From: Myxococcales bacterium | GTDB taxonomy: Bacteria > Myxococcota_A > Polyangia > Polyangiales > Polyangiaceae | Length of the DNA stretch: 64,000 bases | Reading direction: 5' to 3' | NCBI GenBank assembly: GCA_012514535.1 | Contig: JAAZAA010000056.1 | Location: forward strand, 3,932-67,931 | Part shown: positions 7,515 through 25,267 of the stretch, piece by piece | How the letters are laid out: each line of letters opens with the position of its first letter | Numbering within the stretch: position 1 is the stretch's first letter | Position numbers and translations under genes: made by a program | Notes under the pieces: generated by a model | What the model saw: only the letters and a program-made list of their open reading frames with translations | Databases searched by the model: none | Told to the model about the DNA's origin: nothing

Positions 7515-7526
7515 CGTCCGCCGTAA

Positions 7527-7624: not shown

Positions 7625-7663
7625 GGATCTCGCGGCGCCGTAGGGTGAGGGGCGCCGCGATCC
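7625..7663. promoter_or_regulatory. Inverted repeat in divergent Hr-1 / DGC intergenic region
   Basis: GGATC(T)CGCGGCGCC - N11 - GGCGCCGCGATCC, 13-bp arms with one bulged T. It lies ~85-120 bp upstream of the Hr-1 -24 element, a typical enhancer (UAS) distance. Confidence 0.4.
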
Positions 7664-7687
7664 TGCGTCCCCTTCCCTGGTGCACCC

Positions 7688-8170: not shown

Positions 8171-9365
8171 GCACGGGCAGCGCGACCTTGATGGAGACGG
8201 TCAAGATCATCAGGCAGAGCGCCCAAATCCCGGCGGTGACGCGCCACTCGGTGAGACTCGGCGCGTACTCCACGAGCTCGTGCAGGGTGCTGGGCACGAA
8301 GCCCGGGACGATCAACCCCATCCCCTTTTCAATCCAGACGCCCACGAAGGCGAGCGCACACGCGACGTTCAAGACCAGCTTGCTCGTACGTGAGGCGGGC
8401 AGGTGGAGCAGCAGCGCCGAGGCGACGTTGAAGGCGACGGCGGACCAGATCCAGGGCACGAGGCCGTGTTTCCCGTGGGATCCGAAGAACAGGTACTTCG
8501 CGGCGGTGGCGTGAGCTCCGCCCGTATAGAAGGCGGTGAACAGCTCGGAGCCGAGCATGAACAGGTTCAGGAGCACGGTCACCCGCAGCACGGAGGCGAG
8601 CGTCCGGAGAGGACCATCGCCGATGTGGAAGTCCGAGTACCTGCGGACGACCTGCAGCAGGAGGATCACGAAGGCGGGCCCCGTGATGAAGGCCGACGCG
8701 ATGAAGCGCGGAGCGAGCAGCGCCGAGTTCCAGAAGGGGCGCCCGCCGAGCCCGCTGTAAAGGAACGCCGTGACGGTGTGGATCGAGACCGCCCAGAAGA
8801 TGGAGAGGAAGACGAAGGGGAGATACCAGCGCTTGGCCGGCTTGCGGCCGAGGAACCGCATGTAGAGCAGGTAGCCGGTGATGTGCAGGTTGAGCAGCAG
8901 ATAGCCGTTCAGCACGATCACGTCCCAGGTGAGCATCGAGATCGGCCAGTTGAAACGGCCGAGCCCGGGCAGCAGATGCCAGAACCTGTCGGGGCGTCCG
9001 AGATCCGCCAACACGAAGGCGAGGCACAGGGAGATCGCCGCGATCGCCAGCATCTCCCCGATCAGCACCACGGAGTGCATCTCGTGGTCGTCGTACAGGT
9101 AGGCGGGGATGACCATCATCACGGCGCCCGCCGCGAGGCCCACCCCGAAGGTAAAGTTGGCGATGTAGAGCCCCCAGGAGACGTGATCGCTCATCCCCGT
9201 GAGGCCCATCCCCTCGACCACCTGATGAGCCCACGCGTTCGCACCCACCAGGGCCACGGCCGTGAGCACCGTCATCCACGCGTAGAAGCGCCAGGTGCCC
9301 TCGAAGCCCAACTTGAAGAGCTGCCAGAGGAAGCGCGGGTAGGTAGCGGCGTGACTCGAGCCCAT
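8049..9365 (-). CDS. NrfD/PsrC-family polytopic membrane quinol-interacting subunit
   Basis: 438 aa with multiple hydrophobic helices. N-terminus (FLWQLFKLGFEGTWRFYAWMTVLTAVALVG...SWGLYIANFTFGVGLAAGAVMM) is typical of NrfD/HybB-type subunits. The ATG lies 4 nt after the FeS gene stop. Confidence 0.85.
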   Translation of the reverse strand: MGSSHAATYPRFLWQLFKLGFEGTWRFYAWMTVLTAVALVGANAWAHQVVEGMGLTGMSDHVSWGLYIANFTFGVGLAAGAVMMVIPAYLYDDHEMHSVVLIGEMLAIAAISLCLAFVLADLGRPDRFWHLLPGLGRFNWPISMLTWDVIVLNGYLLLNLHITGYLLYMRFLGRKPAKRWYLPFVFLSIFWAVSIHTVTAFLYSGLGGRPFWNSALLAPRFIASAFITGPAFVILLLQVVRRYSDFHIGDGPLRTLASVLRVTVLLNLFMLGSELFTAFYTGGAHATAAKYLFFGSHGKHGLVPWIWSAVAFNVASALLLHLPASRTSKLVLNVACALAFVGVWIEKGMGLIVPGFVPSTLHELVEYAPSLTEWRVTAGIWALCLMILTVSIKVALPVLSGRLGLQGTAPARSPAHPNPTRAIPPTEPAERSAAPVAE

Positions 9366-10895: not shown

Positions 10896-10911
10896 TGCAG
10901 GGGACGTGCCA
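10896..10911 (-). promoter_or_regulatory. sigma-54-type -24/-12 promoter-like motif in front of the cytochrome c/FeS/NrfD operon
   Basis: Minus strand reads cTGGCAC-GTCCC-CTGCAg, one mismatch to TGGCAC-N5-TTGCA. GTG 10879 lies 18 nt after the -12 C. Confidence 0.55.
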
Positions 10912-11097: not shown

Positions 11098-11113
11098 TGG
11101 CGCGTGTCTTGCT
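11098..11113 (+). promoter_or_regulatory. sigma-54-type -24/-12 promoter-like motif in front of napD
   Basis: cTGGCGC-GTGTC-TTGCTt. napD ATG 11134 lies 22 nt after the -12 C. It shares the extended -12 string CTTGCTTGAG with the nnrS site. Confidence 0.55.
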
Positions 11114-11430: not shown

Positions 11431-13838
11431 GGATGGAGCGGCGACAGTTCATCAAGAACGCGGCCATGGCGAGCGCGACGGTAGCCGCCACCCGACTGGC
11501 GCTGGGCAAGGATCCCCCGAAGCCGGACTCCCTCCCCCCCACCCCCGGCGTCACCTGGGACAAGGCGCCCTGTCGTTTCTGCGGCACCGGGTGTCACGTC
11601 CAGGTGGGCGTGAAGAACGGCAAGGTCGTGGCCATCGCCGGGGATCGCAAGGCGGAGGTCAACAAGGGGCTGCTCTGCGTGAAGGGCTATCACGTGGGGC
11701 TCGCCCTGTACGGCAAGGACCGCCTCACACGGCCGCTGCTGCGCAAGGGGGACCGCTTCGAGCCGATCGGCTGGGACCAGGCGCTCGAGATCGTCGCGCG
11801 GCGCATCTTCGACGATCCCGAGGGGTTCGCCATCTACGGCAGCGGGCAGTGGACCATCCCTGAGGGGTACGCCGCCCTCAAGCTCGTGAAGGCCGGCCTC
11901 GGCACGAACAACATCGATCCCAACGCGCGCCTGTGCATGGCCTCCGCCGTCACCGGCTTCTTGGCGACCTACGGCGTCGACGAGCCGGCGGGCTGCTACG
12001 ACGACCTCGACGAGTGCGACGTGCTCATCATGTGGGGAAACAACCCCGCAGAGATGCACCCGGTCCTGTTCTCGCGGGTCATCGACCGCCGCTCCCGGGG
12101 CGAGAAGGTGACCCTGATCGACATCGGGACCCGGCGCACCCGCACCTCCGAACACTGCCAGCACCACCTGCTCTTCAAGCCGCACACCGACATCGCCGTC
12201 GCGAACGGTATCCTCCACCTGCTCCTCGAGCGCGGGACCTACGATCGCGCCTTCGTGGAGAAGCACTGTCGCTTCCGGGCGGACAGCGATCCCGCGACGT
12301 TGCAGGGTAAGGAAATCGGGTTCGACGAGTTCAAGCGGAGGCTCGCGGAGTACACCCCCGAACGGGTTCAGCAAATCTCCGGCGTGTCGGCTCAGGACAT
12401 TCGCATGCTCGCCGACCTGTTCGGTCGGCGCGATCTGCGCATCACCAGCTTGTGGTGCATGGGCCCCAATCAGCACACGCGCGGTACTGCGATCAACACG
12501 CTCATCCACGCGGTCCACCTGCTCAGCGGACACTTCGGTCGTCCCGGGGACGCGCCGACCAGCCTCACCGGGCAGCCCTCCGCCTGCGGAACCGTGCGCG
12601 AGGTGGGCACCCTGGCCCACGCCCTCCCCGGCGGCCTCGTCGTGTCCCAAGCCGAAGATCGCAAGAAGGCGGAGAAGCTCTGGAACCTGCCGGAGGGGCG
12701 CGTTTCCGGGAAGCCCGGGCCGCACACCGTCGAGCTGTGGCGCCGCTTCTCCACCCCCAAGGACGAGGGCGGCACCATCAACACCGTCTGGGTGCAGGTG
12801 ACGAACCCCGCGCGCTCCCTGCCGAACGTCAACGAGCTGTTCGAGCCGAGTCGCCGCATCGACGGCAAGTTCCTCATCGTCTCCGACGTGTACCCCTCCG
12901 CCACCGCCCAGGCGGCGGACCTCATCCTGCCCTCGGCGATGTGGGTCGAGAAGAACGGCATGGTGGGCAACTCCGAGCGGCGCACCCAGCAATGGTTCCG
13001 CATGGTGAAGCCGCCAGGGGAGGCCCGGGACGACGCCTGGCAGCTCATCGCGGTGGCCCGCAAGCTCTACGAGCTCGGCCATCCGGGGATGAAGGACAAG
13101 GACGGGCGCTTCCTCTTCGCCATGGAGCAGGGGGGCGTCGAGGTGCCCGTGTGGGACTACCGCCACTACTACGACATCAACGTCGACTCACGGCTGTTCG
13201 AGGAGTACCGGACCTTCACGCGCTTCAAGCACAAGGATCTCGCCCCCTACGACGAGTACGTGAAGGCGCGGGGCCTCCGTTGGCCCGTGGTGGAGCAGCC
13301 CGACGGCACCTGGCGGGAGACCAAGTTCCGCTTCGCGGGCTTCGACGACCCCTACGTGAAGAAGGGACAGGAGTTCGACTTCTATCACTCCACCACCAAG
13401 GACGGCCGGGCGCAGATCTGGTTCCGGCCCTATCAGCCGCCGCCGGAGGTGCCCGACGCCGAGTATCCCTTCTGGCTGTGCACCGGGCGCGTGCTGGAGC
13501 ACTGGCACACGGGCACGATGACGATGCGCATCCCCCAGCTCCGGAGGGCGATGCCCCAGGCGTACGTCGAGCTGAACCCCGCAGACGCGAAGAAGCTGCG
13601 GGTGACCAGCGGCGACCTGGTGGTGCTCGAGTCGCGGCGCGGACAGCTCGAGTTGCCCGCGTGGATCGAGGGGCGCGGCGCGCCGCCGCCGGGGACCGTG
13701 TTCGTCCCGTTCTTCGACGAGTCGCTGCCCATCAACCGCGTGACCCTCGACGCCCACGACCCCTTCTCCAAGCAGCCGGACTACAAGAAATGCGCCGTGC
13801 GCGTCCGCAGGAGCGCCCGCCGCATCGCACGCCCATGA
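11427..13838 (+). CDS. napA: Periplasmic nitrate reductase catalytic subunit NapA (Mo-bisMGD, 4Fe-4S)
   Basis: Tat signal MRMERRQFIKNAAMASATVAATRLALG. N-terminal cluster CRFCGTGCHV...LCVKGY. Long colinear similarity to NapA as remembered (ANGILHLL, FWLCTGRVLEHWHTGTMT, FVPFFDE). Confidence 0.95.
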   Translation: MRMERRQFIKNAAMASATVAATRLALGKDPPKPDSLPPTPGVTWDKAPCRFCGTGCHVQVGVKNGKVVAIAGDRKAEVNKGLLCVKGYHVGLALYGKDRLTRPLLRKGDRFEPIGWDQALEIVARRIFDDPEGFAIYGSGQWTIPEGYAALKLVKAGLGTNNIDPNARLCMASAVTGFLATYGVDEPAGCYDDLDECDVLIMWGNNPAEMHPVLFSRVIDRRSRGEKVTLIDIGTRRTRTSEHCQHHLLFKPHTDIAVANGILHLLLERGTYDRAFVEKHCRFRADSDPATLQGKEIGFDEFKRRLAEYTPERVQQISGVSAQDIRMLADLFGRRDLRITSLWCMGPNQHTRGTAINTLIHAVHLLSGHFGRPGDAPTSLTGQPSACGTVREVGTLAHALPGGLVVSQAEDRKKAEKLWNLPEGRVSGKPGPHTVELWRRFSTPKDEGGTINTVWVQVTNPARSLPNVNELFEPSRRIDGKFLIVSDVYPSATAQAADLILPSAMWVEKNGMVGNSERRTQQWFRMVKPPGEARDDAWQLIAVARKLYELGHPGMKDKDGRFLFAMEQGGVEVPVWDYRHYYDINVDSRLFEEYRTFTRFKHKDLAPYDEYVKARGLRWPVVEQPDGTWRETKFRFAGFDDPYVKKGQEFDFYHSTTKDGRAQIWFRPYQPPPEVPDAEYPFWLCTGRVLEHWHTGTMTMRIPQLRRAMPQAYVELNPADAKKLRVTSGDLVVLESRRGQLELPAWIEGRGAPPPGTVFVPFFDESLPINRVTLDAHDPFSKQPDYKKCAVRVRRSARRIARP

Positions 13839-14590
13839 GCACTCCCGCCCCCGAACCCTCCGACGTCCTCCGCCACCGCATCTGGCACGTTGTGGGTGCG
13901 GTGGCCGTCGGCGTCGCGGCCGCCGGATTCCTGGCGGGCGTCGCGGGCCCCCCCGAGCGCGCGACGCCTCCTCGAGGAGAGGCGCCCGCCACGGAGGGCC
14001 CCGCCGTCCGCCGCTACTCCGAGATGGGCTCCGAACCGCGCGGTCCGAACGCGAACCTGTACGAGCGCGGCACCTCGGTCCTCGCGGTCGAGCGGGACCC
14101 CTACGCGGTCGTGGAGCGCACGGACGCCGAGCGCGCGGCTGCCCTCCGCGCCCGGGACGCGCGACGGGCCTACGACGGCGCGCCTCCCACGATCCCGCAT
14201 CCCATCGATCAGCGCCGGGCGCCGGACTGCTTGGCGTGCCACGGAGCGGCGGTCCAGATCGACGGCAAGATCGCCCCGACGATGAGCCATCCCCGCTACG
14301 ACAGCTGCACCCAGTGTCACGTCGTGGCCGCCGATCCACGCCCCGGCGGCGCGGCCCCGGAGGGAGTGGCCAACACCTTCGTGGGGACCTCGTCGGAGAA
14401 CCCGGGAGCGCGCGCGTGGCCAGGAGCTCCCCCGACGATCCCCCACGCGACGTCCATGCGCACGGACTGCCTGAGCTGCCACGGCTCCTTGGGGCGCGTG
14501 GGACTGCGCACGAGCCACCCCTGGCGCCAGAGCTGCACCCAGTGCCACGCCCCCTCCGCGGAGCTCGATCAGCGCGGACCAACCCCGTAG
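13835..14590 (+). CDS. napB: NapB-type cytochrome c with two tandem NapB modules (four CxxCH)
   Basis: The ATG overlaps the napA stop (ATGA). N-terminal TM/signal anchor HVVGAVAVGVAAAGFLAGVAG. Module 1 is GAPPTIPH...DCLACHG...MSHP...SCTQCH. Module 2 is GAPPTIPH...DCLSCHG...TSHP...SCTQCH. Confidence 0.8.
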   Translation: MSTPAPEPSDVLRHRIWHVVGAVAVGVAAAGFLAGVAGPPERATPPRGEAPATEGPAVRRYSEMGSEPRGPNANLYERGTSVLAVERDPYAVVERTDAERAAALRARDARRAYDGAPPTIPHPIDQRRAPDCLACHGAAVQIDGKIAPTMSHPRYDSCTQCHVVAADPRPGGAAPEGVANTFVGTSSENPGARAWPGAPPTIPHATSMRTDCLSCHGSLGRVGLRTSHPWRQSCTQCHAPSAELDQRGPTP

Positions 14591-14603
14591 GACCACCCCG
14601 CTC

Positions 14604-14993
14604 ATGTCCCTCCCGCGCCTCGACGTGCCTACGGCGGCCGCGCCAACCGAACCCTCCGCGCGCGCCGTCGACCCCTCTCCCGCAGGGGAGCCCCCCTTGC
14701 CGCCCCTGCAGACCGCGATCCTCGACGAGGCGACCCTCGAACGCCTCTTCCGCGAGATCGCCGCCCTCCCTAGGGCTCCCGAGGTGATCGTGAAGTGGGC
14801 TCCTCGGGAGCACACCCCCGACGCACGCACGTCGCTGGCCGAGGCCCGTGACGCGCTCGGCGATGGCCGCGCCTTCGGGCTGCAGCTCCGGTATCTCCTC
14901 GACGGCTCCCTCTGGTTCGACACCCTGATGCGAGTGGAGGGGGGCGTGCGGCTGGTGCGCATCGCCCATCCCCTGCCGCCATCGTCGAGCTGA
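14604..14993 (+). CDS. Hypothetical protein, last gene of nap operon
   Basis: 129-aa ORF 13 nt after napB. No Cys, no TM segment, no motif I recognise. Codon usage looks coding. Confidence 0.45.
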   Translation: MSLPRLDVPTAAAPTEPSARAVDPSPAGEPPLPPLQTAILDEATLERLFREIAALPRAPEVIVKWAPREHTPDARTSLAEARDALGDGRAFGLQLRYLLDGSLWFDTLMRVEGGVRLVRIAHPLPPSSS

Positions 14994-15094
14994 CGTGCGC
15001 GCAAGGTCGGCGTGACACCGCGGGTCGAGCGGGGCGCCGACGCCGATTCTGCGTGGAGGGCCTACGCCCTTGGCCCCGGGGACCCGCCGTTCCT

Positions 15095-15110
15095 CGGCAT
15101 ACCCCTTGCT
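15095..15110 (+). promoter_or_regulatory. sigma-54-type -24/-12 promoter-like motif in front of nnrS
   Basis: CGGCAT-ACCCC-TTGCTt followed by GAGAGAGATC and in-frame GTG 15122, 13 nt after the -12 C. Confidence 0.5.
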
Positions 15111-15121
15111 TGAGAGAGATC

Positions 15122-16348
15122 GTGAGCTTCGTTTCCTTGCGACTGCCGAGCAGTGAGCAGCCCTCCGCCGCCCCGAACCTCGCCCGCGCGGGCGCCGTCT
15201 TGGGCCGCATGGGGTTTCGCCCGTTCTTCCTGCTGGCTGCGCTGTTCTCCGCGGTGGCCATCCCCCTGTGGGTGCTCGCGCTGCAGGGGCGAGTGCAGCT
15301 CCGGGTTCCAGGAGGTGCTCTGTTTTGGCACACGCACGAGATGGTCTTCGGCTACACGGTCGCCGTGATCGCCGGCTTCTTGCTGACGGCCGTCACCCGC
15401 TGGACCGATCGAAGCACCGCGACCGGCGGACTCCTCTACGCCCTCGCGGGGGTCTGGATCCTGGGACGTGTCGCCGTGCTGCTCGCCGGACACCTGCCGG
15501 GCACCCTCGTCGCCGTGGTGGACCTGTCGTTCCTCCCGCTCGTCGCCTGGGCCATCGGCAGACCCATCTACGCGTCGCGCAACCGTCGCAACTACGCGAT
15601 GGTCGGGATCCTGGTCGGACTGGGGGGAGCCAACCTGGCGGTGCACCTGGACAGCCTCGGGGTCGCGCCCGGTGGGGCCCCCTGGGGGCTCCGCCTGGGG
15701 CTCAATCTGATCACCCTGATGATGCTCATCATCGGCGCGCGGGTGATTCCGATGTTCACTCGGAACGCAGTGGGCGACTCGAGGATCCAATCCGCGCGTA
15801 GCTGGGACGTGGCGACCGCGCTGGGCGCCGTCGCCCTCACGGTCGCCGACGTCGTCGCTGCGCCCGCCCCCATCCAGGCCGCGCTCGGCGGGGGAACGGC
15901 GCTGGTGGCGCTGGTGGCGGCGCGGCGCTGGGGAACGCGCGCGAGCCTCCGTAACCCGATGCTGTGGGTGCTCCACTTCGGCTACTTCTGGATCCCCATC
16001 GCGCTCCTGCTGCGGGCCGCGCACTTCGCCGGACTGCCCGTCGCTCACAGCACGGCGGTGCACGCCCTCACCGCGGGCGCCATCGGCACGCTCACCTTGG
16101 GCATGATGGCGCGGGTCACCCTCGGTCATAGCGGGCGCATCATCACGACGTCCCCGCTGACCACGGCGTGCTTCGCCGCGATCACGGCGGCGGCCCTCCT
16201 CCGGGTGACCGTTCCGGAGCTGGCGCCTCCCCTCACGGCCCACGCGTGGCTCTGCGCGGGCATCGCCTGGACGCTCGCCTTCCTCGGCTACGCGGTGCGC
16301 TTTGGTCCGATGCTGCTCAGTCCTCGCGTCGACGGGAAGGCTGGATGA
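15122..16348 (+). CDS. nnrS: NnrS-family heme/copper membrane protein (NO-stress associated)
   Basis: GFRPFFLLAALFSAVAIPLWV...HTHEMVFGYTVAVIAGFLLTAV with ~12 TM helices. I prefer GTG 15122, which leaves ~29 aa before GFRPFF as in other NnrS proteins. The ORF track starts at 15053. Confidence 0.85.
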   Translation: MSFVSLRLPSSEQPSAAPNLARAGAVLGRMGFRPFFLLAALFSAVAIPLWVLALQGRVQLRVPGGALFWHTHEMVFGYTVAVIAGFLLTAVTRWTDRSTATGGLLYALAGVWILGRVAVLLAGHLPGTLVAVVDLSFLPLVAWAIGRPIYASRNRRNYAMVGILVGLGGANLAVHLDSLGVAPGGAPWGLRLGLNLITLMMLIIGARVIPMFTRNAVGDSRIQSARSWDVATALGAVALTVADVVAAPAPIQAALGGGTALVALVAARRWGTRASLRNPMLWVLHFGYFWIPIALLLRAAHFAGLPVAHSTAVHALTAGAIGTLTLGMMARVTLGHSGRIITTSPLTTACFAAITAAALLRVTVPELAPPLTAHAWLCAGIAWTLAFLGYAVRFGPMLLSPRVDGKAG

Positions 16349-16351
16349 ACC

Positions 16352-17434
16352 ATGAAGTCCCACGACGACCACCCCTTCATCGCCATCTGGGAGACGACCC
16401 AGGCCTGCGATCTGAGCTGCAAACACTGCCGCGCCGAGGCGCGCCCGGAGCGCGACGCCGGTGAGCTCGACACCGCCGAGGGGAAGCGGCTCCTCGAGTC
16501 CTTCGCCGCGGCGCGGGTGCCGCTGGTCGTGCTGACGGGCGGCGATCCCGCCAAGCGCCCCGACCTCGTCGAGCTGGTGGCCTACGGTCACTCCCTCGGC
16601 CTGGCCATGGGGCTCACCCCCTCCGCCACCCCCCTGGTGACCCCCGAGCTCGTCGGCGACCTCGCGCGGGCGGGGCTCGCGCGCCTCGCCATCAGCATCG
16701 ACGGACCGAACGCCGAGATCCACGACTCCTTCCGGGGCATGGCCGGCGGCTTCGACTGCGCCCTGTCGATCCTGGAGGCGGCCCGGCGCCACTCCCTGCC
16801 GACGCAGATCAACACCTCGATCTACACGAGCAACCAGGGCTGCCTGCCGGAGCTCGTGGGCTTCGTCCGGCAGCAGCGCTGCACCCTCTGGAGCGTGTTC
16901 TTCGTCGTCCCCACCGGCCGCGCCAGCTGGCGCATGGAGCTGTCCGACGACGAGGTGGAGGCGGCGCTCGAGCTGCTGGCGGACGCCGCGGAGCGTGAGC
17001 CCTTCGCCATCAAGACGACCGCGGCGCCCCAGTATCGCCGCCTGTTGCTGCAGCGGGGTCGGGGCAAGTCCCACGGGGCCCGCGGGATCGCCGGGCTCGA
17101 CGTGAACGAGGGGCGCGGCTTCATGTTCGTCTCCCACCGGGGCGACGTGTTCCCGAGTGGCTTCCTCCCCGTCGCTTGCGGCAACGTTCGCCACACCGAT
17201 CCCGTGACCATCTACCGTGAGAGCCCGGTGTTCCGGTCGCTCCGCGATCCCGGCGCCCTCCAAGGCAAGTGCGGCGTATGTCAGTACAAGAAGGTGTGCG
17301 GCGGCTCACGGGCGCGCGCCTACGCCCACTCGGGCAACGTGCTCGCCTCCGATCCCGCCTGCGCCTACGTCCCCCCCGGCTACGTGGGGCCCCCTCCGAG
17401 CGCGCGTCCGCGCAGGCTCGAGGTGCTCGCATGA
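16352..17434 (+). CDS. Radical SAM / SPASM-domain enzyme (NirJ/AhbD-like)
   Basis: CX3CX2C motif in IWETTQACDLSCKHCRAE. GGDP SAM-binding strand. C-terminal SPASM Cys motif GKCGVCQYKKVCGGSRARAY...DPACAY. The start lies 4 nt after the nnrS stop. Confidence 0.85.
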   Translation: MKSHDDHPFIAIWETTQACDLSCKHCRAEARPERDAGELDTAEGKRLLESFAAARVPLVVLTGGDPAKRPDLVELVAYGHSLGLAMGLTPSATPLVTPELVGDLARAGLARLAISIDGPNAEIHDSFRGMAGGFDCALSILEAARRHSLPTQINTSIYTSNQGCLPELVGFVRQQRCTLWSVFFVVPTGRASWRMELSDDEVEAALELLADAAEREPFAIKTTAAPQYRRLLLQRGRGKSHGARGIAGLDVNEGRGFMFVSHRGDVFPSGFLPVACGNVRHTDPVTIYRESPVFRSLRDPGALQGKCGVCQYKKVCGGSRARAYAHSGNVLASDPACAYVPPGYVGPPPSARPRRLEVLA

Positions 17435-17486
17435 CTCTCCTCGCGGTCTCGCCGCCAGCACCTCTGCAGTGAAGGAACTCTCTCGA

Positions 17487-18941
17487 ATGCTCGAAGCACA
17501 CGACCTGCCCACGATCATCCAGGGCGGCATGGGAATCGGCGTCTCCGACTGGCGCTTGGCGCGCAGCGTGTCGATCCAGGGCGGCCTCGGCGTGGTCTCT
17601 GGCACGGCCATCGACACCGTCCTGGTGCGACGCCTCCAGCTGGGGGACGAGGGGGGGCACGTGCGCCGCGCCCTGGCCGCCTTCCCGGACCAGCGCGCCG
17701 CCGAGCGACTCCTGAAGCGCTACTACGTCGAAGGAGGGATCCCCCCGGATGCGCCCTTCCAGCCGCTCCCCCTGCCGAAACAGCGCATGAACCGCGCTCG
17801 CCTGCAGGTCTTCGTCCTGGCGAACTTCGTCGAGGTGTTCCTCGCCAAGGAGGGACACGACGGCCCGATCGGGATCAACTATCTGGAGAAGATCCAGCTC
17901 CCGACCCTGCCGTCCCTCTACGGGGCCTTGCTCGCCGGAGTGGACGTGATCCTCATGGGGGCAGGCATCCCCGCCTCGATCCCCGGGATCATCGCGGGGC
18001 TGCTCGCGGGCGAGCGCGTGGAGCTGAAGCTGCAGGTGGAAGGCCACCGCACCCCCGAGGGGTTCACGACCACCTTCGCCCACGAGGACGCCTTCGACGA
18101 GGACCTGCTCGCCGCCCGTCGCGACGGCGCCCGATCCCGACGGCCCCTTTTCCTGCCCATCATCTCCTCACACATCCTCGCGAAGACCCTCACGAAGAAG
18201 GCGAACGGCAAGGTCGACGGCTTCGTCGTCGAGAGCCACGTCGCCGGCGGACACAACGCGCCTCCGCGCAAGTCCCGGACCTCGGACGGCGGCGGATGGG
18301 GAGCCCTCGATGCACCCGACCTCGACGTGCTCCGGGGCCTCGAGCTGCCCTTCTGGCTGGCAGGGGGGCGCGCGTCGGCGGCGGCATACCAGGAGGCGCG
18401 GCGCCTGGGTGCCCACGGCATCCAGGTGGGGACCGCCTTCGCCTTCTGCGAGGAGTCCGGGATCCCCCTCGACGTGAAACGACGGACCATCGCGAGCTGC
18501 CGCCGGGGCACCCTCCACGTGGTGACCGACTTCGAGGCGTCGCCGACAGGCTATCCCTTCAAGCTGGTCCTCGACGACGACGAACCTCGAGCCCTCCAGG
18601 ACCTCCGGGATCGGACCCGGGTCTGCGACCTCGGCTACCTGCGCCAGAACTACGTCGACGAGCACGGGCGCCTCGGCTATCGCTGCCCGGGAGAACCCAA
18701 GGACACGTACGTGGCGAAGGGCGGCGCCCTCGAGGCGACCCACAACAAGCTCTGCCTCTGCAACGGCCTGCTCGCCACGGTGGGGCTCGGTCAGCGCCGT
18801 GACCACGTTCCGGAGCTCCCCATCTATACGGCCGGCGAAGGGATCGAGAGCATCCTCGAGTTCCTCGGCCCGGGGCGCGACTCCTACACCGCTGGCGACG
18901 TCCTGAAACATTTGCGCGCCGAACGGGCTCCCGGCTCCTGA
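17487..18941 (+). CDS. Nitronate monooxygenase / 2-nitropropane dioxygenase-family FMN oxidoreductase (long form)
   Basis: MLEAHDLPTIIQGGMGIGVSDWRLARSVS...GVVSGT, then VVESHVAGGHN and GIQVGTAF, a TIM-barrel FMN signature. ATG 17487 is preferred over ORF-track 17217. Confidence 0.8.
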   Translation: MLEAHDLPTIIQGGMGIGVSDWRLARSVSIQGGLGVVSGTAIDTVLVRRLQLGDEGGHVRRALAAFPDQRAAERLLKRYYVEGGIPPDAPFQPLPLPKQRMNRARLQVFVLANFVEVFLAKEGHDGPIGINYLEKIQLPTLPSLYGALLAGVDVILMGAGIPASIPGIIAGLLAGERVELKLQVEGHRTPEGFTTTFAHEDAFDEDLLAARRDGARSRRPLFLPIISSHILAKTLTKKANGKVDGFVVESHVAGGHNAPPRKSRTSDGGGWGALDAPDLDVLRGLELPFWLAGGRASAAAYQEARRLGAHGIQVGTAFAFCEESGIPLDVKRRTIASCRRGTLHVVTDFEASPTGYPFKLVLDDDEPRALQDLRDRTRVCDLGYLRQNYVDEHGRLGYRCPGEPKDTYVAKGGALEATHNKLCLCNGLLATVGLGQRRDHVPELPIYTAGEGIESILEFLGPGRDSYTAGDVLKHLRAERAPGS

Positions 18942-18957
18942 GCGCTCGAACTCCAGC

Positions 18958-18980
18958 GCCCAGCCCCCTAAGCGCTGGGC
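18958..18980. terminator. Hairpin after the nnrS operon
   Basis: GCCCAGC (18958-18964), 9-nt loop, GCTGGGC (18974-18980), 17 nt after the stop codon. No U-tract. Confidence 0.35.
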
Positions 18981-19011
18981 CTACCCCACTCCTCCATTGT
19001 AGCCTCTCCCC

Positions 19012-20040
19012 ATGGCCATCGCGCCGCCCGCCGACTCGCCGCTCCTGGACGCTCGCGGTCGTCCGCTCCGGGACCTGCGCGTCAGCGTGACGGACCGGTG
19101 CAACTTTCGGTGCGGCTACTGCATGCCGCGGGCTCACTTCGACGAGAACTTCCGGTTCTTGCCCCATTCGGCGCTCCTGAGCTTCGAGGAGATCGCCCGC
19201 GTGGCGCGGCTGTTCGTCGCGATGGGCGTCGAGAAGGTGCGCCTCACGGGGGGAGAGCCCCTGCTGCGGCGACACCTCGAGCGGCTCGTCGAGCTCCTCG
19301 CGCGGAACGAGGGGCTCGATCTCGCCCTCACCACGAATGGCGCGCTCCTGGCGGAGAAGGCCCCAGCGCTCGCGGCGGCGGGTCTGCGGCGGGTCACGGT
19401 GAGCCTCGACTCCCTCGAGGACGAGCGCTTTCGCCAGCTCACCGACAGCGCCGTGTCCGTCGATCGCATCCTCCACGGCATCGAGGTGGCCGCTCGCGCG
19501 GGGCTCGGTCCCCTGAAGATCAACACCGTCGTGCGACGGGGCGTGAACGACCACGAGGTGGTCACGATCGCGGAGCACTTCCGGGGCACGGGGCACGTCG
19601 TGCGCTTCATCGAGTTCATGGACGTCGGCACCACCAACCACTGGAACCGCGCCGAGGTGGTCACCGGCGCGGAGATCGTGGCTCGCATCGACGCCCGCTT
19701 CCCCCTCGAGCCCCTCGAGCCGGAGCGGCCCGGAGAGGTCGCCCGGCGCTACCGCTACGCCGACGGCGCGGGAGAGATCGGCGTCATCACGAGCGTCAGC
19801 GCGCCCTTCTGCGGGGACTGCAGCCGAGCCCGCCTGAGCTCCGAGGGGCGCCTGTTCACCTGCCTGTTCGCGACGCGGGGCACCGACCTGAGGGCCCTCG
19901 TCCGGCAAGACACGGACGACGGCGCGCTCCGGGAGGCCATCCGCTCCGCCTGGCGCGGGCGCGACGATCGTTACTCCGAGCTCCGCAACGACGGCAAGCG
20001 ACACCTACCGCGCATCGAGATGTCGTACATCGGCGGCTGA
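19012..20040 (+). CDS. moaA: GTP 3',8-cyclase MoaA (molybdenum cofactor biosynthesis)
   Basis: [18 protein letters not shown] radical-SAM motif, LTGGEPLLR, and C-terminal auxiliary cluster [20 protein letters not shown]. Confidence 0.95.
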
Positions 20041-20051
20041 GCCTCGCCTCC

Positions 20052-20795
20052 ATGAGCGATTCCCTCGTGCTCCTCAGCTCCGGCGCCTTCTTCGTCGTCG
20101 CGTTCCTCTACGCGTCCGTCGGCCACGCGGGGGCTTCGGGCTACCTGGCGGTCATGGCGCTGCTCTCCCACGCCCCCGAGACCATCAAGCCCATCTCGCT
20201 GCTCATGAACTGCGTCGTGGCGACGATCGCGTCCGTCGCCTTCATCCGGGCCGGGCACTTCGACGGGCGCGTGCTGCTCCCCTTCGCCGTCACGTCGATT
20301 CCGCTCGCGTTCCTCGGCGGCACCCTCCGGCTCGATCCGGCCCTGTTCCGCACCTTCGCGGGCGTGTTCCTCCTGGGCGCCAGCCTCCTCCTCTTCTTGC
20401 GGGAGCACCTCCGCCCCCGCGACGAGCCCCGCCCGGTGCGACTCCCCCTCGCGCTCACCCTCGGCGCGGGCATCGGCGTCGTCTCGGGCATGCTGGGCGT
20501 CGGGGGCGGCATCTTTCTCACCCCGTTGCTCATCGTCCTGGGCTGGGCCCCCGTGAAGACCGCCGCCGGGGTCTCGGCCCTGTTCATCCTCTGCAACTCG
20601 CTGATGGGCCTCCTCGGCCACGTCAGCGAGTTCGCGGAGCTCCCGCTGGCGACGCTGCCCTTCTGCGGCGCCGCCCTCGCCGGGGGCTACCTCGGGGCCC
20701 ACCTCGGCGCGACCCGCCTGGACCCCCGCGTCGTGCATTGGATCCTGCGGATCGTGCTGCTCGGCGCCGGCCTGAAGTTCCTGCTGGTTCGGTGA
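20052..20795 (+). CDS. TauE/SafE (DUF81) family anion exporter
   Basis: 247 aa with ~8 TM helices. Duplicated motif SVGHAGASGY / GMLGVGGGIFLTPLL. Taken from an internal ATG of the longer ORF-track frame. Confidence 0.8.
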   Translation: MSDSLVLLSSGAFFVVAFLYASVGHAGASGYLAVMALLSHAPETIKPISLLMNCVVATIASVAFIRAGHFDGRVLLPFAVTSIPLAFLGGTLRLDPALFRTFAGVFLLGASLLLFLREHLRPRDEPRPVRLPLALTLGAGIGVVSGMLGVGGGIFLTPLLIVLGWAPVKTAAGVSALFILCNSLMGLLGHVSEFAELPLATLPFCGAALAGGYLGAHLGATRLDPRVVHWILRIVLLGAGLKFLLVR

Positions 20796-20816: not shown

Positions 20817-22277
20817 TCACTCCCGCGGGCGCACCTCGAGCACCGCCATCATGCCCAGCTTCGCGTGGTCCAGGATGTGACAGTGGAACATCCACAGGCC
20901 CGGCCGGTCATCGTAGGTGACGACGAAGCGCAGGGTCTCGCGGGGTGGGACGTTCACCGAGTCCTTCATCTCGCGGACGGGCCACGGCCGCCCCCCCACC
21001 TCGAGGACCTCGAAGGAGAACCCATGGAGATGAAACGGGTGGGCATAGTCCGTGTCGTTCAGGACCTCCCACACCTCCGTGTCACCGACGTAGGCGACGT
21101 GGGGTGTCTCGTGGTGGTGCATGGAGTCCTGGTGGACCTCGCCGTTGATCGAGAGGTGCGGGACCCCGTCCAGGGCCTGCTCTCCGAGCACGATCTGACG
21201 AGTGGGCAGCCCGGCCAGGTCGAGGGGAGGAAACTCCCGGAGCGTCTCGGGCACGCGCGCGGCTCCCGCCCCGCCCGCCTCGACCTCGACGTCGAAGAGC
21301 GGCTGATCGAGCTCCAGCACGCCGAGGTTGAACCGATCCGGATCCTGCGCGACCACCTCGAGCGCCCCCGCCGCGGACTCCGGGAAGGAGACCAACACCT
21401 CCGCTCGCTCGGAGGTGGCAAGCAGCAGCTCGCTGAAGGTCTGTGGGCTCTCGATAAGTCCCCCGTCCCCGCCAATGCGGATCAGATCCGTGTCGGGGAC
21501 GGCCATCTTGAAGAAGCGCGCGCGGGCCGCGTTGATGACGCGCCAGCGCTGAGGCAAGCCCGTGCGTGCCCGTAGCTTCGGCTGCACCTGGCCGTTGACG
21601 AGCAGGACCGAACCTTCCCGTCCGAAGTAGTCCCCGAACCACTCGGTGGCGTCCCCGGGCTGCAGCTGCCCCTCCTCATCGAGGGACATGTCGCTGAGGA
21701 CGAGGACCAGCTCCTCCGCGTCGATGGGGTCGTCGGGATCTTCGACCACGATCGGGCCGTAGAGGCCGTAGCCGACCTGAGCCGACGAGTCGATGTGGGG
21801 GTGGTACCAGAACGTGCCCGCATCCAGCAGCTCGAAGTCGTAGGTGAAGCTCTCCCCGGGCTCGACGGGATCCTGCACCGCGTGGGTCCCGTCCATGGTC
21901 GCGGGCACCCGCACCCCATGCCAGTGCACGGTGGTCGGGTCGGGCAGGTGGTTGGTGAAGTGGACGATCAGCCGGTCCCCCTTCTTGGCGCGCAGCAGGG
22001 GCCCGGGGATGGATCCGTTGTAACTCCAGACCTCCGTCAGCACGCCGGGGAGGATCTCGAGCTCCGCGAGCCGCGCCTCGATCTTCACCTCGAGCACGTT
22101 CGGATCGGGGTTGAGATCCTCCGCCACCACGGGAGCGATCTCCGCATCCCAATCGGGGGGCTGGGCGGCCCAATCCTCCTCCTCGCTCGCAGGTCCACAC
22201 GCGCTCGCCAGAGGCAGCAGCGCCAGCCAGAGCAGGCCGGAGCCCGGCAGCACTCGAGACACTTCCTGAACGTTCAC
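20817..22277 (-). CDS. Multicopper oxidase (laccase/CueO-like), predicted lipoprotein
   Basis: Copper motifs HWHGVRV, HPFHLHGFSF and WMFHCHILDHAKLGMM. In-frame GTG 22277 gives (M)NVQEVSRVLPGSGLLWLALLPLASAC, a lipobox. The ORF-track start 22337 would place a strong sigma-54-like motif inside the CDS. Confidence 0.85.
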   Translation of the reverse strand: MNVQEVSRVLPGSGLLWLALLPLASACGPASEEEDWAAQPPDWDAEIAPVVAEDLNPDPNVLEVKIEARLAELEILPGVLTEVWSYNGSIPGPLLRAKKGDRLIVHFTNHLPDPTTVHWHGVRVPATMDGTHAVQDPVEPGESFTYDFELLDAGTFWYHPHIDSSAQVGYGLYGPIVVEDPDDPIDAEELVLVLSDMSLDEEGQLQPGDATEWFGDYFGREGSVLLVNGQVQPKLRARTGLPQRWRVINAARARFFKMAVPDTDLIRIGGDGGLIESPQTFSELLLATSERAEVLVSFPESAAGALEVVAQDPDRFNLGVLELDQPLFDVEVEAGGAGAARVPETLREFPPLDLAGLPTRQIVLGEQALDGVPHLSINGEVHQDSMHHHETPHVAYVGDTEVWEVLNDTDYAHPFHLHGFSFEVLEVGGRPWPVREMKDSVNVPPRETLRFVVTYDDRPGLWMFHCHILDHAKLGMMAVLEVRPRE

Positions 22278-22289: not shown

Positions 22290-22305
22290 TGCAGGGTACA
22301 TGCCA
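22290..22305 (-). promoter_or_regulatory. sigma-54-type -24/-12 promoter-like motif in front of the multicopper oxidase
   Basis: Minus strand reads tTGGCAT-GTACC-CTGCAa. GTG 22277 lies 14 nt after the -12 C (22291). Confidence 0.55.
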
Positions 22306-22423: not shown

Positions 22424-22439
22424 TGGCCCGGATATTGCC
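22424..22439 (+). promoter_or_regulatory. sigma-54-type -24/-12 promoter-like motif in front of the cupin gene
   Basis: aTGGCCC-GGATA-TTGCCc. The cupin ATG 22484 lies 46 nt after the -12 C and is preceded by GAGGGAGAAG. Palindrome CGCAGATCCTGCG (22400-22412) lies just upstream. Confidence 0.4.
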
Positions 22440-22883: not shown

Positions 22884-23594
22884 TCAGGCGGGGCTCCTCA
22901 CGAACCGCGGCTTGAGCACGTGGTTCTCGAGGTGCACGTGGATGAAGATGTCCGCCTCGAGCTCCCACAGCTCCGAGAACAACGTGCGATAGCTCGTGCA
23001 GGCCCAGTGGGGCAGTGAGAAGTCGTCGCTCGCCGCCCGGATCCGCTCCAGGAGCACGGCAATGTCCGTGTGATCTCCCGTCATCGAGCCCAGCAGGCGA
23101 CGGATCCGAGCTTCGTCCAGGGGCTCCGTCGTCAGCGCGGGGAAGAGCTCCTGCTCCTCTTCGTCGAGGTGCGCCAGCAGGATCTCCGAGAGCTCCTGGA
23201 CCGCGTCGTCGAGCTCTCGAAGCTTCGGGTTGGTGCCCCCGTGCACCCTGGACACCTTCGCGGCGAGCCCCTGCACGAAGGGGAGGCTCTTGCGGAGCGT
23301 GTCATGATGCCGCGCGACGATGTGTTCGACGAGCTCCGCGGTCGGGAGCTCCCGCAGTGACACGTCTTCCACCGACTGGCGCTCGGCGATGGTGCGCCCC
23401 AGCTCGTGAAGCAAGGCGTCCAACTCGACCCCACGTTTCTCCGCCGCTTCGGCGATACTCAGCTCCCCACCGCAACAGAAATCGATACGATGCCTCTGCA
23501 GCACGGCGGCGCAGGCGGAATGTTCGAGCACCAAGCCTGCGACGGTCTGGCGAGGATCCGGCGCCTGGAAGAGGTGCGTGCTTCGCTCTGTCAT
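22884..23594 (-). CDS. ric: Repair-of-iron-centres di-iron protein (RIC / YtfE / ScdA / DnrN / NorA family)
   Basis: N-terminal ScdA_N motif RIDFCCGG and C-terminal hemerythrin-like His/Glu pattern (HIVARHHD, LLAHLDEEEQELFP, HVHLENHVL). ATG 23594 is preferred over ORF-track 23771. Confidence 0.85.
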   Translation of the reverse strand: MTERSTHLFQAPDPRQTVAGLVLEHSACAAVLQRHRIDFCCGGELSIAEAAEKRGVELDALLHELGRTIAERQSVEDVSLRELPTAELVEHIVARHHDTLRKSLPFVQGLAAKVSRVHGGTNPKLRELDDAVQELSEILLAHLDEEEQELFPALTTEPLDEARIRRLLGSMTGDHTDIAVLLERIRAASDDFSLPHWACTSYRTLFSELWELEADIFIHVHLENHVLKPRFVRSPA

Positions 23595-23606
23595 GAGCCC
23601 CTCCTC

Positions 23607-23622
23607 AGCACGCGCCATGCCA
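23607..23622 (-). promoter_or_regulatory. sigma-54-type -24/-12 promoter-like motif in front of ric
   Basis: Minus strand reads cTGGCAT-GGCGC-GTGCTg. ATG 23594 lies 14 nt after the -12 C (23608). The intervening GAGGAGG could alternatively be a Shine-Dalgarno. Confidence 0.45.
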
Positions 23623-23707
23623 GCCGGGCCTCCGACGAGTTCCGGTGCTTTTCGGAGCCAGCGGCCACGCCGCGTCACCCTGGACTCGTTCCAGAGCCGG
23701 TCACAGA

Positions 23708-24712
23708 ATGGAACACGTGGAACGAGCCTCCTCAACCTGCAGCGTCTGTGGCCTGGTCCCCCTGGCGCCACGCCTGAAGGGCGCCACCCACGTGGTGGCG
23801 CGCAGTCCGTCCATGCAGGTGCTCCTCAAACGCGCGGCGCGGTTCGCTCAAAGCGACGCGCCCATCGCGGTCCTCGGGGAGACGGGGACCGGCAAGGAGG
23901 TCGTCGCGCGGGTCGTCCACGCTAACTCACCGCGGGCGCAGCGCCCCTTCGTGGCCGTGAACGTGGCCGCGCTGCCGACGGAGCTCCTCGAATCGGAGCT
24001 CTTCGGCCACGGCAAAGGGGCGTTCACGGGGGCCGCCGCCGCCCGGCGCGGGCTCTTCGAGGAGGCGGACGGGGGCACCCTCTTCCTCGACGAGATCGGA
24101 GAGATGTCCCTCCCCCTGCAGGCGAAGCTCCTCCGGGCGCTGCAGGACGGTGAGCTCCGGCGCGTCGGGGAGAACCAGGCGTTCTCCGTCGACGTGCGGG
24201 TGATCTGCGCCACCCACCGGAACCTGCGCGAGCGCGTCATGAACGGGCAGTTCCGGGAGGATCTCTTCTATCGCCTCAAGGTGCTCACGCTCGAGGTGCC
24301 CCCCCTCCGCGAGCGCCGCGAGGACCTCTTGCCGCTGGCACGACACTTCCTCACCCGGGAGAACACCAGCGCCATCGGGTTCGCCGCCGCCGCCGCGGAG
24401 CGGATGCTCGGTTACGCCTGGCCCGGCAACGTCCGGGAGCTCGAGAACGTCGTCAAGCATGGGGCCGCCCTCGCGAGCGGCCAGGAGATCGTCGTCGCCG
24501 ACCTCCCCGAGGAGTTGCTCCAGGATCGCCCTCCGCCCAGCGGTCCCACCGCGCCGACCAACCCATTCCGCACCCTCGCCGAGGTCGAGCGGGAGCACAT
24601 CCTCCGCGTGCTCGACGCCTGCGGGGGCTCCCAGTCCGAGGCGGCTCGGGTCCTCGGGGTCGCGCGGAACACCCTCTGGCGAAAGCTACGCAACCCCGAG
24701 CCAGCGGCATGA
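23708..24712 (+). CDS. sigma-54-dependent enhancer-binding protein consisting only of AAA+ core and C-terminal Fis-type HTH (no receiver/GAF/PAS domain)
   Basis: Walker A GETGTGKE, sigma-54 contact loop GAFTGA, Walker B LFLDEIGE, R-finger region, C-terminal HTH SQSEAARVLGVARNTLWRKL. Only ~35 aa precede the AAA+ core, and they contain CSVCG. Confidence 0.9.
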   Translation: MEHVERASSTCSVCGLVPLAPRLKGATHVVARSPSMQVLLKRAARFAQSDAPIAVLGETGTGKEVVARVVHANSPRAQRPFVAVNVAALPTELLESELFGHGKGAFTGAAAARRGLFEEADGGTLFLDEIGEMSLPLQAKLLRALQDGELRRVGENQAFSVDVRVICATHRNLRERVMNGQFREDLFYRLKVLTLEVPPLRERREDLLPLARHFLTRENTSAIGFAAAAAERMLGYAWPGNVRELENVVKHGAALASGQEIVVADLPEELLQDRPPPSGPTAPTNPFRTLAEVEREHILRVLDACGGSQSEAARVLGVARNTLWRKLRNPEPAA

Positions 24713-24748
24713 TTCCTGCCCCTGCTCGCCGTCGAGGAGCAAGAACCC

Positions 24749-25267
24749 ATGTTCGTCCAGATCGGCCGCCGCCAGCCCCCCGAGGGGCTCGTCACGTTGT
24801 TCCTCGAGTGCCACGGGCGGATCCGCGCGTTCACGGAGATCGCGCTACGGCTCGGTGAGCAAGAGGACGTGCCCCCCGAGGAGGTCGTCGACGCCTCGGC
24901 GCGCTGTCTGCGGTACTTCACGGAGGCCCTGCCCCTCCACATCGCCGACGAGGAGGAGAGCCTCCTCCCGCTTCTCCGGGGGCGCGAGGCGGCCGTCGAC
25001 GCCGCCCTCGACCTCATGCACGCGCAGCACGAGGCGCACGATCCGCTGCTCGCGGAGCTCGTCGACGCGCTCCGCGAGCGGAGGGGCGCCCCCGAGGCGA
25101 CGAGCGCCCGCGCGCGCCTTGCGACCGCCGCGCGGCGCGCGCAGCCGGAGCTGTTGCTGCACCTGGAGCACGAGGAGCGCGTCCTCTTCCCCGCTGCTCG
25201 ACGGCTCCTGACAGGAGCCGAGGAGCAGGCAGTACTCACCGAGCTGCGCGCGCGTCGTCATCGCTGA
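24749..25267 (+). CDS. Hemerythrin (HHE) domain protein, Hr-2, immediately downstream of the EBP
   Basis: LFLECHGRIRAF, LPLHIADEEESLLP, MHAQHEAHD, LLHLEHEERVLFP. Starts 36 nt after the EBP stop on the same strand. Confidence 0.75.
   Translation: MFVQIGRRQPPEGLVTLFLECHGRIRAFTEIALRLGEQEDVPPEEVVDASARCLRYFTEALPLHIADEEESLLPLLRGREAAVDAALDLMHAQHEAHDPLLAELVDALRERRGAPEATSARARLATAARRAQPELLLHLEHEERVLFPAARRLLTGAEEQAVLTELRARRHR

Follow-up and report, generated by a model that had tools for sequence, protein, structure and literature searches.

Organization of the predicted nnrS operon

The DNA analyzed here (the window, 64,000 nucleotides with a G+C content of around 70%) comes from contig JAAZAA010000056.1 of a Myxococcales bacterium of the Polyangiaceae (assembly GCA_012514535.1). 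This work deals with a predicted operon in it, headed by the nnrS gene and followed by genes for a radical S-adenosylmethionine (SAM) protein and for a flavin mononucleotide (FMN) oxidoreductase of the nitronate monooxygenase (NMO) fold. The gene map was built from codon-position G+C and family searches, and it agrees with public gene calls on identical contigs (L081; window coordinate = L081 coordinate + 6351), which give the same boundaries for these three genes. The features of the unit are the following:

15095..15110, + strand: sigma-54-type -24/-12 element CGGCATACCCCTTGCT (GG-N10-GC), assigned by motif spacing, function predicted
15122..16348, + strand: nnrS, heme/copper membrane protein of the NnrS family, 408 aa (Pfam PF05940, 354 bits, E 1.6e-105)
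16352..17434, + strand: radical SAM gene, TIGR04053, 360 aa, predicted AhbD type (PF04055; TIGR04053, 420.5 bits, cutoff 395)
17487..18941, + strand: gene for a long-form NMO/FabK-fold FMN TIM-barrel oxidoreductase, 484 aa (PF03060, 50.7 bits, cutoff 28)
19012..20040, + strand: moaA, GTP 3',8-cyclase (NCBIfam TIGR02666, 377.7 bits, cutoff 284)
20052..20795, + strand: TauE/SafE-family anion exporter gene, the last on its strand (Pfam PF01925, 126.8 bits)

The NnrS match covers positions 4-371 of the 371 of its profile and lies far above the gathering score of 28. The genes are separated by 3 nt (nnrS and radical SAM gene), 52 nt (radical SAM and NMO-like genes), 70 nt (NMO-like gene and moaA) and 11 nt (moaA and tauE). 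The three first open reading frames (ORFs), with their coordinates and the gaps of 3 and 52 nt, had been described in an earlier note made on this DNA from the sequence alone, and the independent gene calls agree with them. A scan of the + strand between 13800 and 21000 detected neither an intrinsic terminator-like site nor a sigma-70 promoter, and because of this and of the short 70-nt gap, moaA probably belongs to the same transcription unit. MoaA catalyzes the first step in the synthesis of the molybdenum cofactor.

The radical SAM protein belongs to the family of Haloferax AhbD

The radical SAM protein aligns end to end with the TIGR04053 model (profile positions 4-366 of 366), with a score above its cutoff. 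The next-best NCBIfam models were those of AhbD (TIGR04545, 302.4 bits), NirJ2 (214 bits) and NirJ (TIGR04051, 147.7 bits). The AhbDs of the Haloferax volcanii type likewise fall in TIGR04053 and not in TIGR04545. In an alignment with 20 homologs (A1), the motif for the radical SAM cluster, CX3CX2C (Cys19/23/26), and the auxiliary-cluster (AuxII) motif CX2CX5CX20C (Cys307/310/316/337) are both invariant, in such a way that, among the eight invariant cysteines of the protein, C276 is the only one outside the two motifs. The four AuxI cysteines of a full SPASM domain are missing, and Ser319 is found at the position of Cys324 of Methanosarcina barkeri. According to Fix et al. (PMC10452713), all AhbDs carry CX3CX2C and CX2CX5CX20-38C, the four additional AuxI cysteines being present only in methanogens and sulfate reducers, and the non-methanogenic archaeal AhbDs have Glu and Ser at AuxI positions. 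Because Ser319 occupies the position of the M. barkeri cysteine, we place the protein with the AhbDs of non-methanogens; as judged from the sequence, its cysteine pattern matches the single-auxiliary-cluster AhbD group of non-methanogenic archaea.

An AlphaFold2 (AF2) model of the protein (predicted local distance difference test, pLDDT, of 85.5) had PqqE and SuiB as its top folds, together with BlsE and anSME; SuiB was also the top structural match for the AhbD model of Fix et al. (PMC10452713). A sequence search of the Protein Data Bank (PDB) retrieved no solved structure of AhbD, NirJ or NnrS, and a literature search on "TIGR04053" found no paper.

SuiB and SkfB among the fold neighbours could suggest a SPASM-type maturase acting on an unannotated small precursor of a ribosomally synthesized and post-translationally modified peptide. 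We consider this extremely improbable. A precursor gene would not fit into the gaps of 3, 52 and 70 nt, the protein lacks the AuxI cysteines, and the sequence families nearest to it all consist of tetrapyrrole enzymes. The neighbourhood of the radical SAM gene was also analyzed, by tblastn and clustering of flanking ORFs, in 80 genome loci (51 from Acidobacteriota, 23 from Myxococcota/delta, five from Gemmatimonadota and one from a haloarchaeon), and no small ORF is conserved beside it in them, in agreement with the earlier note, which had found no precursor-peptide ORF.

A homolog with known genetics is HVO_2144 of H. volcanii, with 52% identity over 351 aa (E 1e-116). It was reached through a search with a Haloferax larsenii protein, and it is named as a TIGR04053 family protein at NCBI and as "Coproheme decarboxylase AhbD" in UniProt (D4GUU1). 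Its gene is located on a contig of 2,847,757 bp, presumably the main chromosome, where nirK, HVO_2142, DUF2249, ahbD and halocyanin follow one another and norB comes further on (L095). Kosugi et al. (PMC5746218) described that deletion of HVO_2144 abolishes only denitrifying growth and growth on dimethyl sulfoxide (DMSO) respiration, and that protoheme restores it. The earlier note had called the chemistry of the operon unknown and knew of no described pathway that combines the three genes; for the radical SAM enzyme this view is not supported, since TIGR04053 is the family of this AhbD and its mutant is rescued by heme. On the basis of family and motifs, the protein is most likely an AhbD-type oxygen-independent coproheme decarboxylase, that is, a heme b synthase. 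Such an AhbD-like enzyme has been predicted as an anaerobic substitute of ChdC in organisms that use the coproporphyrin pathway (PMC10114771; PMC13564367), and a precedent for oxygen-independent heme genes in nitric oxide (NO) regulons exists in hemN, a member of the DNR/NnrR regulon (PMC1274295).

A further connection with heme synthesis was found in the neighbourhoods. A hemY gene passing TIGR00562 adjoins the radical SAM gene in L043 (10001-12611), L062 and L093, and genes of the Amino_oxidase family, not scored against TIGR00562, do so in L014, L096, L098 and L100; these loci correspond to several Myxococcota and one Gemmatimonadota. In L098 (2300-4860) the stop of the radical SAM gene overlaps the start of hemY, and the HemY of this locus, the single copy tested, gave 249 bits to CgoX of Bacillus subtilis versus 175 to PgoX of Myxococcus xanthus. 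Because this HemY is closer to CgoX than to PgoX, the sequences hint at a coproporphyrin-type heme branch in these Myxococcota lineages. Acidobacteria are users of the coproporphyrin pathway; M. xanthus is not.

The family is associated with NO and denitrification genes across phyla

Across phyla, members of the radical SAM family are encoded near qNor, RIC and hemerythrin genes, regulators of the Crp/Fnr or NsrR type, and NnrS or NnrS-like genes. Of the 51 acidobacterial loci, 44 have RIC, 41 Crp/Fnr, 40 a hemerythrin and 32 qNor. The contexts in Myxococcota and Gemmatimonadota are more varied, and include Crp, heme-copper oxidase/NOR subunits, cytochromes c, NosZ and sensor kinases. Tblastn of plasmids and a genome scan detected further members in haloarchaea, Thermus, Deinococcus and Bacillus. 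In Halobellus rarus (L077) nirK and qNor flank a TIGR04053 gene (494 bits), and in H. larsenii the radical SAM gene, halocyanin and norB are consecutive. In the H. volcanii locus, a 106-aa ORF matching Pfam PF26005 ("rSAM_target_put") was observed at 11845-12165, beside norB and around 4.6 kb from ahbD; no equivalent of this ORF was seen in the window.

In Thermus thermophilus JL-18 the TIGR04053 gene is placed between nirS and a cytochrome c gene, near norCBH, Rrf2 and cytochrome P460. The Thermus promoter PnirJ requires DnrS, DnrT and NsrR (nsrRST cluster, probably NsrR; PMC5748679). Thermus papers name this family member NirJ, and the auxiliary motif CX2CX5CX20C of the window protein is identical to that of NirJ. 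An enzyme with NirJ-like or other chemistry on tetrapyrrole side chains would then have to be considered, acting with release of acrylate, as NirJ does (PMC12505453). The FabK-like NMO-fold enzyme, which resembles enoyl reductases, would reduce the toxic enoate by-product. We judge this very unlikely, as the protein scores 147.7 bits with the NirJ model against a cutoff of 515, and twice as high with that of AhbD. Moreover, the 64-kb window has neither nirS nor a nirF-type or other heme d1 gene, and in most loci of the family the nitrite reductase is NirK or is missing, for which reasons a heme d1 role does not fit.

The neighbourhoods also bear on the proposal of the earlier note that the radical SAM enzyme could mature the cofactor of NnrS. 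In its more general form, the protein would be dedicated to NnrS or qNor, as a maturase or as an enzyme that modifies heme, and would make or repair a special cofactor and not bulk heme b. NnrS was found within 10 kb of the radical SAM gene in six of the 80 loci, all of them from Myxococcota, and beyond those six a divergent NnrS lies directly downstream of the gene in L021; the two genes are adjacent in the window, L085, L099, L003, L004, L005 and L021, and no more than around 1.5 kb apart in L008 and L027. It is also possible that a 451-aa polytopic membrane protein without Pfam match (c5), present with the radical SAM gene, RIC and qNor in 42 of the 51 acidobacterial loci, is NnrS-like. Nevertheless, this link is weak. 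BLASTP between c5 and NnrS was not significant and Pfam gave no match for c5 even at E 5, hhalign produced an E of 0.01 with a probability of 4%, and the other hints are transitive, namely a match of the divergent L021 NnrS to one c5 member at E 2.6e-5 and a c5-like ORF in L001. One example of c5 is found at 7019-8374 (- strand) of L071, the acidobacterial loci being L016-L080. The same enzyme exists without NnrS nearby, beside norB and nirK in haloarchaea and beside nirS and norCB in Thermus. Besides this, plain protoheme suffices to rescue the H. volcanii mutant, and the linkage to hemY points to general heme synthesis. We therefore regard a dedicated maturation of NnrS as very improbable.

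The radical SAM and NMO-like genes form a conserved pair in Polyangiaceae

The earlier note had asked whether the linkage of the three genes extends beyond this genome. The complete nnrS-radical SAM-NMO trio recurs in relatives of the Polyangiaceae only, in L085 and L099, and it is missing from 79 of the 80 radical SAM loci. The result is different for the pair formed by the radical SAM and NMO-like genes. Starting from the NMO orthologs with at least 57% identity (eight loci, window included, among which the choice of L093, L099 and L100 was blind), the radical SAM gene was located at 3 kb or less in 8/8. The arrangements are nnrS-radical SAM-NMO in the window and in L099, where it is preceded by nap; nnrS-radical SAM-217 aa-NMO in L085; qNor-radical SAM-NMO in L093 and L100; hemY / radical SAM-NMO in L096; radical SAM-hemY-GH9-NMO in L098; and radical SAM-multicopper oxidase / NMO in L097. 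The pair is a clade-specific conserved module, with NnrS or qNor as the upstream partner.

The gene inserted in L085 (2806-3459, 217 aa) had only a non-significant YwiC-like Pfam match (E 0.16), and the Thermus nic cluster, too, has a protein annotated as YwiC-like (L089, 2164-3261).

Among the 80 loci, an NMO-like gene was present within 10 kb of the radical SAM gene in three. The more distant NMO homologs of Desulfococcus, Deinococcus and Streptomyces have no radical SAM gene nearby, two of them adjoining universal stress protein genes; the plasmid-borne homologs of Deinococcus and Streptomyces had an uninformative context.

The NMO-fold protein carries a predicted metal site

Compared with solved NMO/FabK proteins, the NMO-fold protein gave 37 bits at best, and 24-30 bits with the solved NMOs alone. 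Its FMN barrel is kept, and an invariant AGGH motif (His256) aligns with the His motif of FabK and NMO. In addition, proteins of the family are extended at the C terminus, and the extension contains four cysteines (380, 400, 423 and 425) that are invariant and spaced as Cx19Cx22CxC (alignments A2 and A3). With an AF2 model of pLDDT 90.4, the best Foldseek match was FabX of Helicobacter pylori (7e1q, E 8e-17), followed by FabK, NMOs, PA1024 and PfaD. FabX is an FMN enzyme of the NMO family with a C-terminal [4Fe-4S] subdomain held by four cysteines, C300/C304/C308/C320 (PMC8626469). The spacing in FabX, Cx3Cx3Cx11C, differs from that of the window protein, in such a way that a FabX-type site was not recognized. 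We infer that the NMO-fold protein binds FMN and also has a metal site, probably an Fe-S cluster, and its family name is not to be read as its function.

AhbD and HemY need an electron acceptor without oxygen, which makes it attractive that the NMO-fold protein could be a redox partner of the radical SAM enzyme, or of the neighbouring CgoX-like HemY, working as an oxygen-free electron sink or relay. What serves AhbD as external electron acceptor is regarded as an open question in the field (PMC10114771; PMC10452713). The proximity to the radical SAM gene in 8/8 loci, the four invariant cysteines together with the AGGH histidine, and FabX as top structural match favour this role. Against it, 77 of the 80 radical SAM loci have no NMO gene within 10 kb, the family occurs without radical SAM gene in Desulfococcus, Deinococcus and Streptomyces, and the cysteine spacing is unlike that of FabX. 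On balance the partnership is doubtful, and a literature search combining "nitronate monooxygenase" with "AhbD" found nothing. A more specific version, which we consider unlikely, is that in Polyangiaceae-type Myxococcota the AhbD-type enzyme, the CgoX-like HemY and the NMO-fold FMN/Cys4 protein would constitute an oxygen-independent terminal branch of the coproporphyrin-dependent heme pathway, induced by NO and anoxia. In this branch the NMO-fold protein would act as electron acceptor or relay of AhbD, from the auxiliary cluster to Fe-S and FMN and then to NAD(P)+ or quinone.

The alternative is that the operon is a regulon patchwork, in which the genes share a promoter, because all are useful under nitrate/NO stress, without a biochemical link, and the NMO-fold protein acts separately against stress, for instance as a detoxifier of nitronates or nitroalkanes, a PA1024-like NADH:quinone reductase or an enoate reductase. 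NO regulons are mosaic, with NnrS as a core member (PMC1274295). The NMO family is widespread and often found beside universal stress protein genes without radical SAM genes (Deinococcus L091, Desulfococcus L094). Most radical SAM loci lack an NMO gene, and FabK, NMO and PA1024 are among the structural neighbours of the protein. However, the closeness of both genes in 8/8 Polyangiaceae loci, despite a varied upstream gene and rearranged surroundings, exceeds what is usual for co-regulation. We consider the patchwork rather unlikely. Of the puzzle raised in the earlier note, the NMO-like gene is the part that stands.

Sigma-54-type elements precede the radical SAM units

The earlier note had proposed a sigma-54-like promoter ahead of nnrS. 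Considered alone, the element CGGCATACCCCTTGCT is weak, with two mismatches, and such matches are not enriched in the window (41 versus 45 expected by chance from shuffled sequence). Better elements at orthologous loci sustain the proposal. A near-consensus TGGCAC-N5-TTGCT immediately precedes the first gene of the unit containing the radical SAM gene in L093 (TGGCACATCGTTTGCT), L100 (TGGCACATCGCTTGCT), L096 (TGGCACATGGCTTGCT), L098 (TGGCATGTGAATTGCT), L097 (TGGAACAATCCTTGCT) and L008 (TGGCATAGTCGTTGCT), and a weaker one in L085 (CGGCACGCCACTTGCC), the background of the loose pattern in related loci being 0.27 per kb per strand. Together with the gene for an enhancer-binding activator nearby (23708-24712), this conservation supports the predicted control of the operon by sigma-54. 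No Fnr/Crp box (TTGAT-N4-ATCAA) was detected upstream of nnrS.

In L099 the sole site of this type precedes the nap genes, which run directly into nnrS-radical SAM-NMO. Based on that layout and on a site before nap in the window (11098-11113), the operon may start at nap, with nap co-transcribed with nnrS. The -12 element of CGGCATACCCCTTGCT ends just 12 nt ahead of the GTG at 15122, for which reason the nnrS mRNA may be nearly leaderless, or the true start may be the ATG at 15209 (Met30); the Pfam match of NnrS begins at residue 29.

More sigma-54-type -24/-12 elements were observed at 10896-10911 (- strand), 11098-11113 (+), 22290-22305 (-) and 22424-22439 (+). They lie ahead of the NrfD/ferredoxin/cytochrome c and nap operons and of the genes for the multicopper oxidase and the cupin. 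A single RpoN regulon may take in much of the island.

The predicted operon lies in a nitrate reductase and NO-stress island

Other genes of the surroundings, from Pfam and gene calls unless another model is given, are the following:

11433-13838, + strand: NapA-like catalytic subunit (NapA model, 894.7 bits, just below the cutoff of 904)
13835-14590, + strand: NapB-like cytochrome c (PF03892)
14604-14993, + strand: 129-aa ORF of the nap region (gene calls)
22884-23618, - strand: RIC
23708-24712, + strand: sigma-54 enhancer-binding protein without sensor domain
24749-25267, + strand: hemerythrin beside the enhancer-binding protein

Around the operon there are also a Crp/Fnr regulator, four or five hemerythrins in all, a cupin, a three-domain multicopper oxidase, a NirBD fusion and an NrfD/ferredoxin/cytochrome c module, in addition to RIC and the sensor-less sigma-54 activator. 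The context given in the earlier note (nap upstream, moaA downstream, RIC and hemerythrins nearby) is correct, and so is its reading as a nitrosative-stress and nitrate setting.

The divergent RIC gene, the 334-aa enhancer-binding protein (AAA+ and helix-turn-helix, with neither GAF nor receiver domain) and the 172-aa hemerythrin form a trio at 22884-25267 that is repeated in L099 at 15577-17865. The di-iron protein may serve in trans as NO/O2 sensor for this sensor-less NorR-like activator.

The multicopper oxidase is of the CueO-like, three-domain type and fails the NirK model. It is encoded at 20817-22253 (- strand) in the window and recurs beside the radical SAM and NMO genes in L085 (4936-6399) and L097 (6292-7836); haloarchaeal loci also have such genes nearby. 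At 1979-5812 (- strand), a protein of 1277 aa fuses NirB-like and NirD-like parts of an assimilatory nitrite reductase to an N-terminal domain resembling HemD (uroporphyrinogen-III synthase), an unusual combination that ties a siroheme enzyme to tetrapyrrole synthesis. A single ORF of 3886 aa, largely of TPR repeats, occupies 35396-47056 (- strand).

The island is flanked by two GH9 cellulase genes, at 25330-28395 (- strand) and 32011-34755 (+ strand). Near-identical sequence comes mainly from compost metagenomes, and also from soil, sludge and fertilizer metagenomes and compost metatranscriptomes, and the sequence of the radical SAM protein occurs in 211 indexed blocks of the assembly collection. 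From these three observations we conclude that the host is a common cellulolytic compost bacterium of the Polyangiaceae type.

Proposed role of the operon

The genes lie inside an island for periplasmic nitrate reduction and NO stress in a compost Polyangiaceae, and do not form one new pathway. We think it probable that the first three are the core of a sigma-54-dependent unit responding to anoxia, nitrate and NO, formed by nnrS, the AhbD-type radical SAM gene, the NMO-fold gene, moaA and tauE, and perhaps beginning at nap, which combines protection with cofactor supply and in which the radical SAM protein works as an oxygen-independent heme b synthase. NnrS would provide NO tolerance as a membrane hemoprotein, and MoaA would begin the synthesis of the molybdenum cofactor for NapA. 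In the radical SAM enzyme, the cluster at Cys19/23/26 would cleave SAM, and the resulting 5'-deoxyadenosyl radical would take hydrogen from the propionates of rings A and B of Fe-coproporphyrin III, with loss of CO2 to give the vinyl groups, while the leftover electron would exit through the single auxiliary cluster at Cys307/310/316/337. Heme would be made in this way without O2 or H2O2 during nitrate respiration and exposure to NO.

Several data weigh against this proposal. The radical SAM protein is under the curated equivalog cutoff of AhbD (TIGR04545, 302.4 versus 500 bits), and the 64-kb window contains no cpfC, chdC, cgoX or ahbABC gene that could account for the supply of coproheme. 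M. xanthus, the reference myxobacterium, uses the protoporphyrin pathway, which lacks a coproheme intermediate, and the Thermus member of TIGR04053 carries an annotation for the maturation of heme d1. The evidence from H. volcanii is genetic only. As for transcription, compost metatranscriptome contigs span from nnrS to moaA with flat depth (X32, 14263-20418; X34, 15210-19549), but such contigs also bridge convergent genes and DNA carry-over is possible, so they were not used as evidence of co-transcription.

If the proposal is true, it would give bacterial support to an AhbD-like radical SAM enzyme that replaces the H2O2-dependent ChdC in the conversion of coproheme to heme without oxygen. 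This heme step would be wired into NO and denitrification regulons in many soil phyla, among them Acidobacteriota, Myxococcota, Gemmatimonadota and Deinococcota, and also in haloarchaea. The labels "TIGR04053 family radical SAM/SPASM protein" and, in Thermus, "NirJ" could then probably be replaced by a function, and the conserved radical SAM-NMO pair would offer a concrete candidate for the electron acceptor of AhbD.

Comparison with known systems

With respect to what has been described, the operon varies a known arrangement and does not represent new chemistry, its NMO-fold partner being the unexplained part. One of the closest systems is that of H. volcanii AhbD (HVO_2144), which shares with the window protein the TIGR04053 family, the cysteine pattern and a setting in an NO/denitrification cluster, lies between nirK and norB, and is needed only for anaerobic growth. 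It differs in being archaeal, in obtaining coproheme from siroheme through AhbABC, in the absence of NnrS or NMO-fold neighbours, and in a regulation that is not by sigma-54. The closest enzymes with biochemical characterization are the canonical AhbDs of M. barkeri and Desulfovibrio (TIGR04545), which share the CX3CX2C and AuxII motifs and for which the same chemistry is predicted, from the propionates of coproheme to vinyls. In contrast with them, the window protein scores 302 versus a cutoff of 500 and lacks the AuxI cysteines, so one auxiliary cluster is expected instead of two.

The "NirJ" of the nic cluster of T. thermophilus is also a TIGR04053 protein (46-47% identity), encoded beside nirS and norCBH and under the anoxia/nitrate regulators DnrS and DnrT, whereas its role in heme d1 is assumed, its regulators are others and it has no NnrS or NMO-fold neighbour. 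The same logic, an oxygen-independent radical SAM step of heme synthesis co-regulated with nir, nor and nnrS, is found in hemN (CgdH) of proteobacterial DNR/NnrR regulons, although HemN is of an unrelated radical SAM family, acts on coproporphyrinogen III and belongs to the protoporphyrin pathway.

FabX of H. pylori and the FabK enoyl-ACP reductases share with the NMO-fold protein the FMN TIM barrel and the (E/V)AGGH histidine, with a TM-score of 0.71 on the target for FabX, but the window protein has only around 17% identity to them, is 120 aa longer, has another cysteine spacing and is not in a context of fatty acid synthesis. Finally, the nnrS gene of Vibrio cholerae resembles that of the window in its sigma-54 promoter, which there depends on the NO-responsive enhancer-binding protein NorR; in the window, the putative activator lacks GAF and is paired with a hemerythrin and RIC, and the operon also includes genes for cofactor synthesis.

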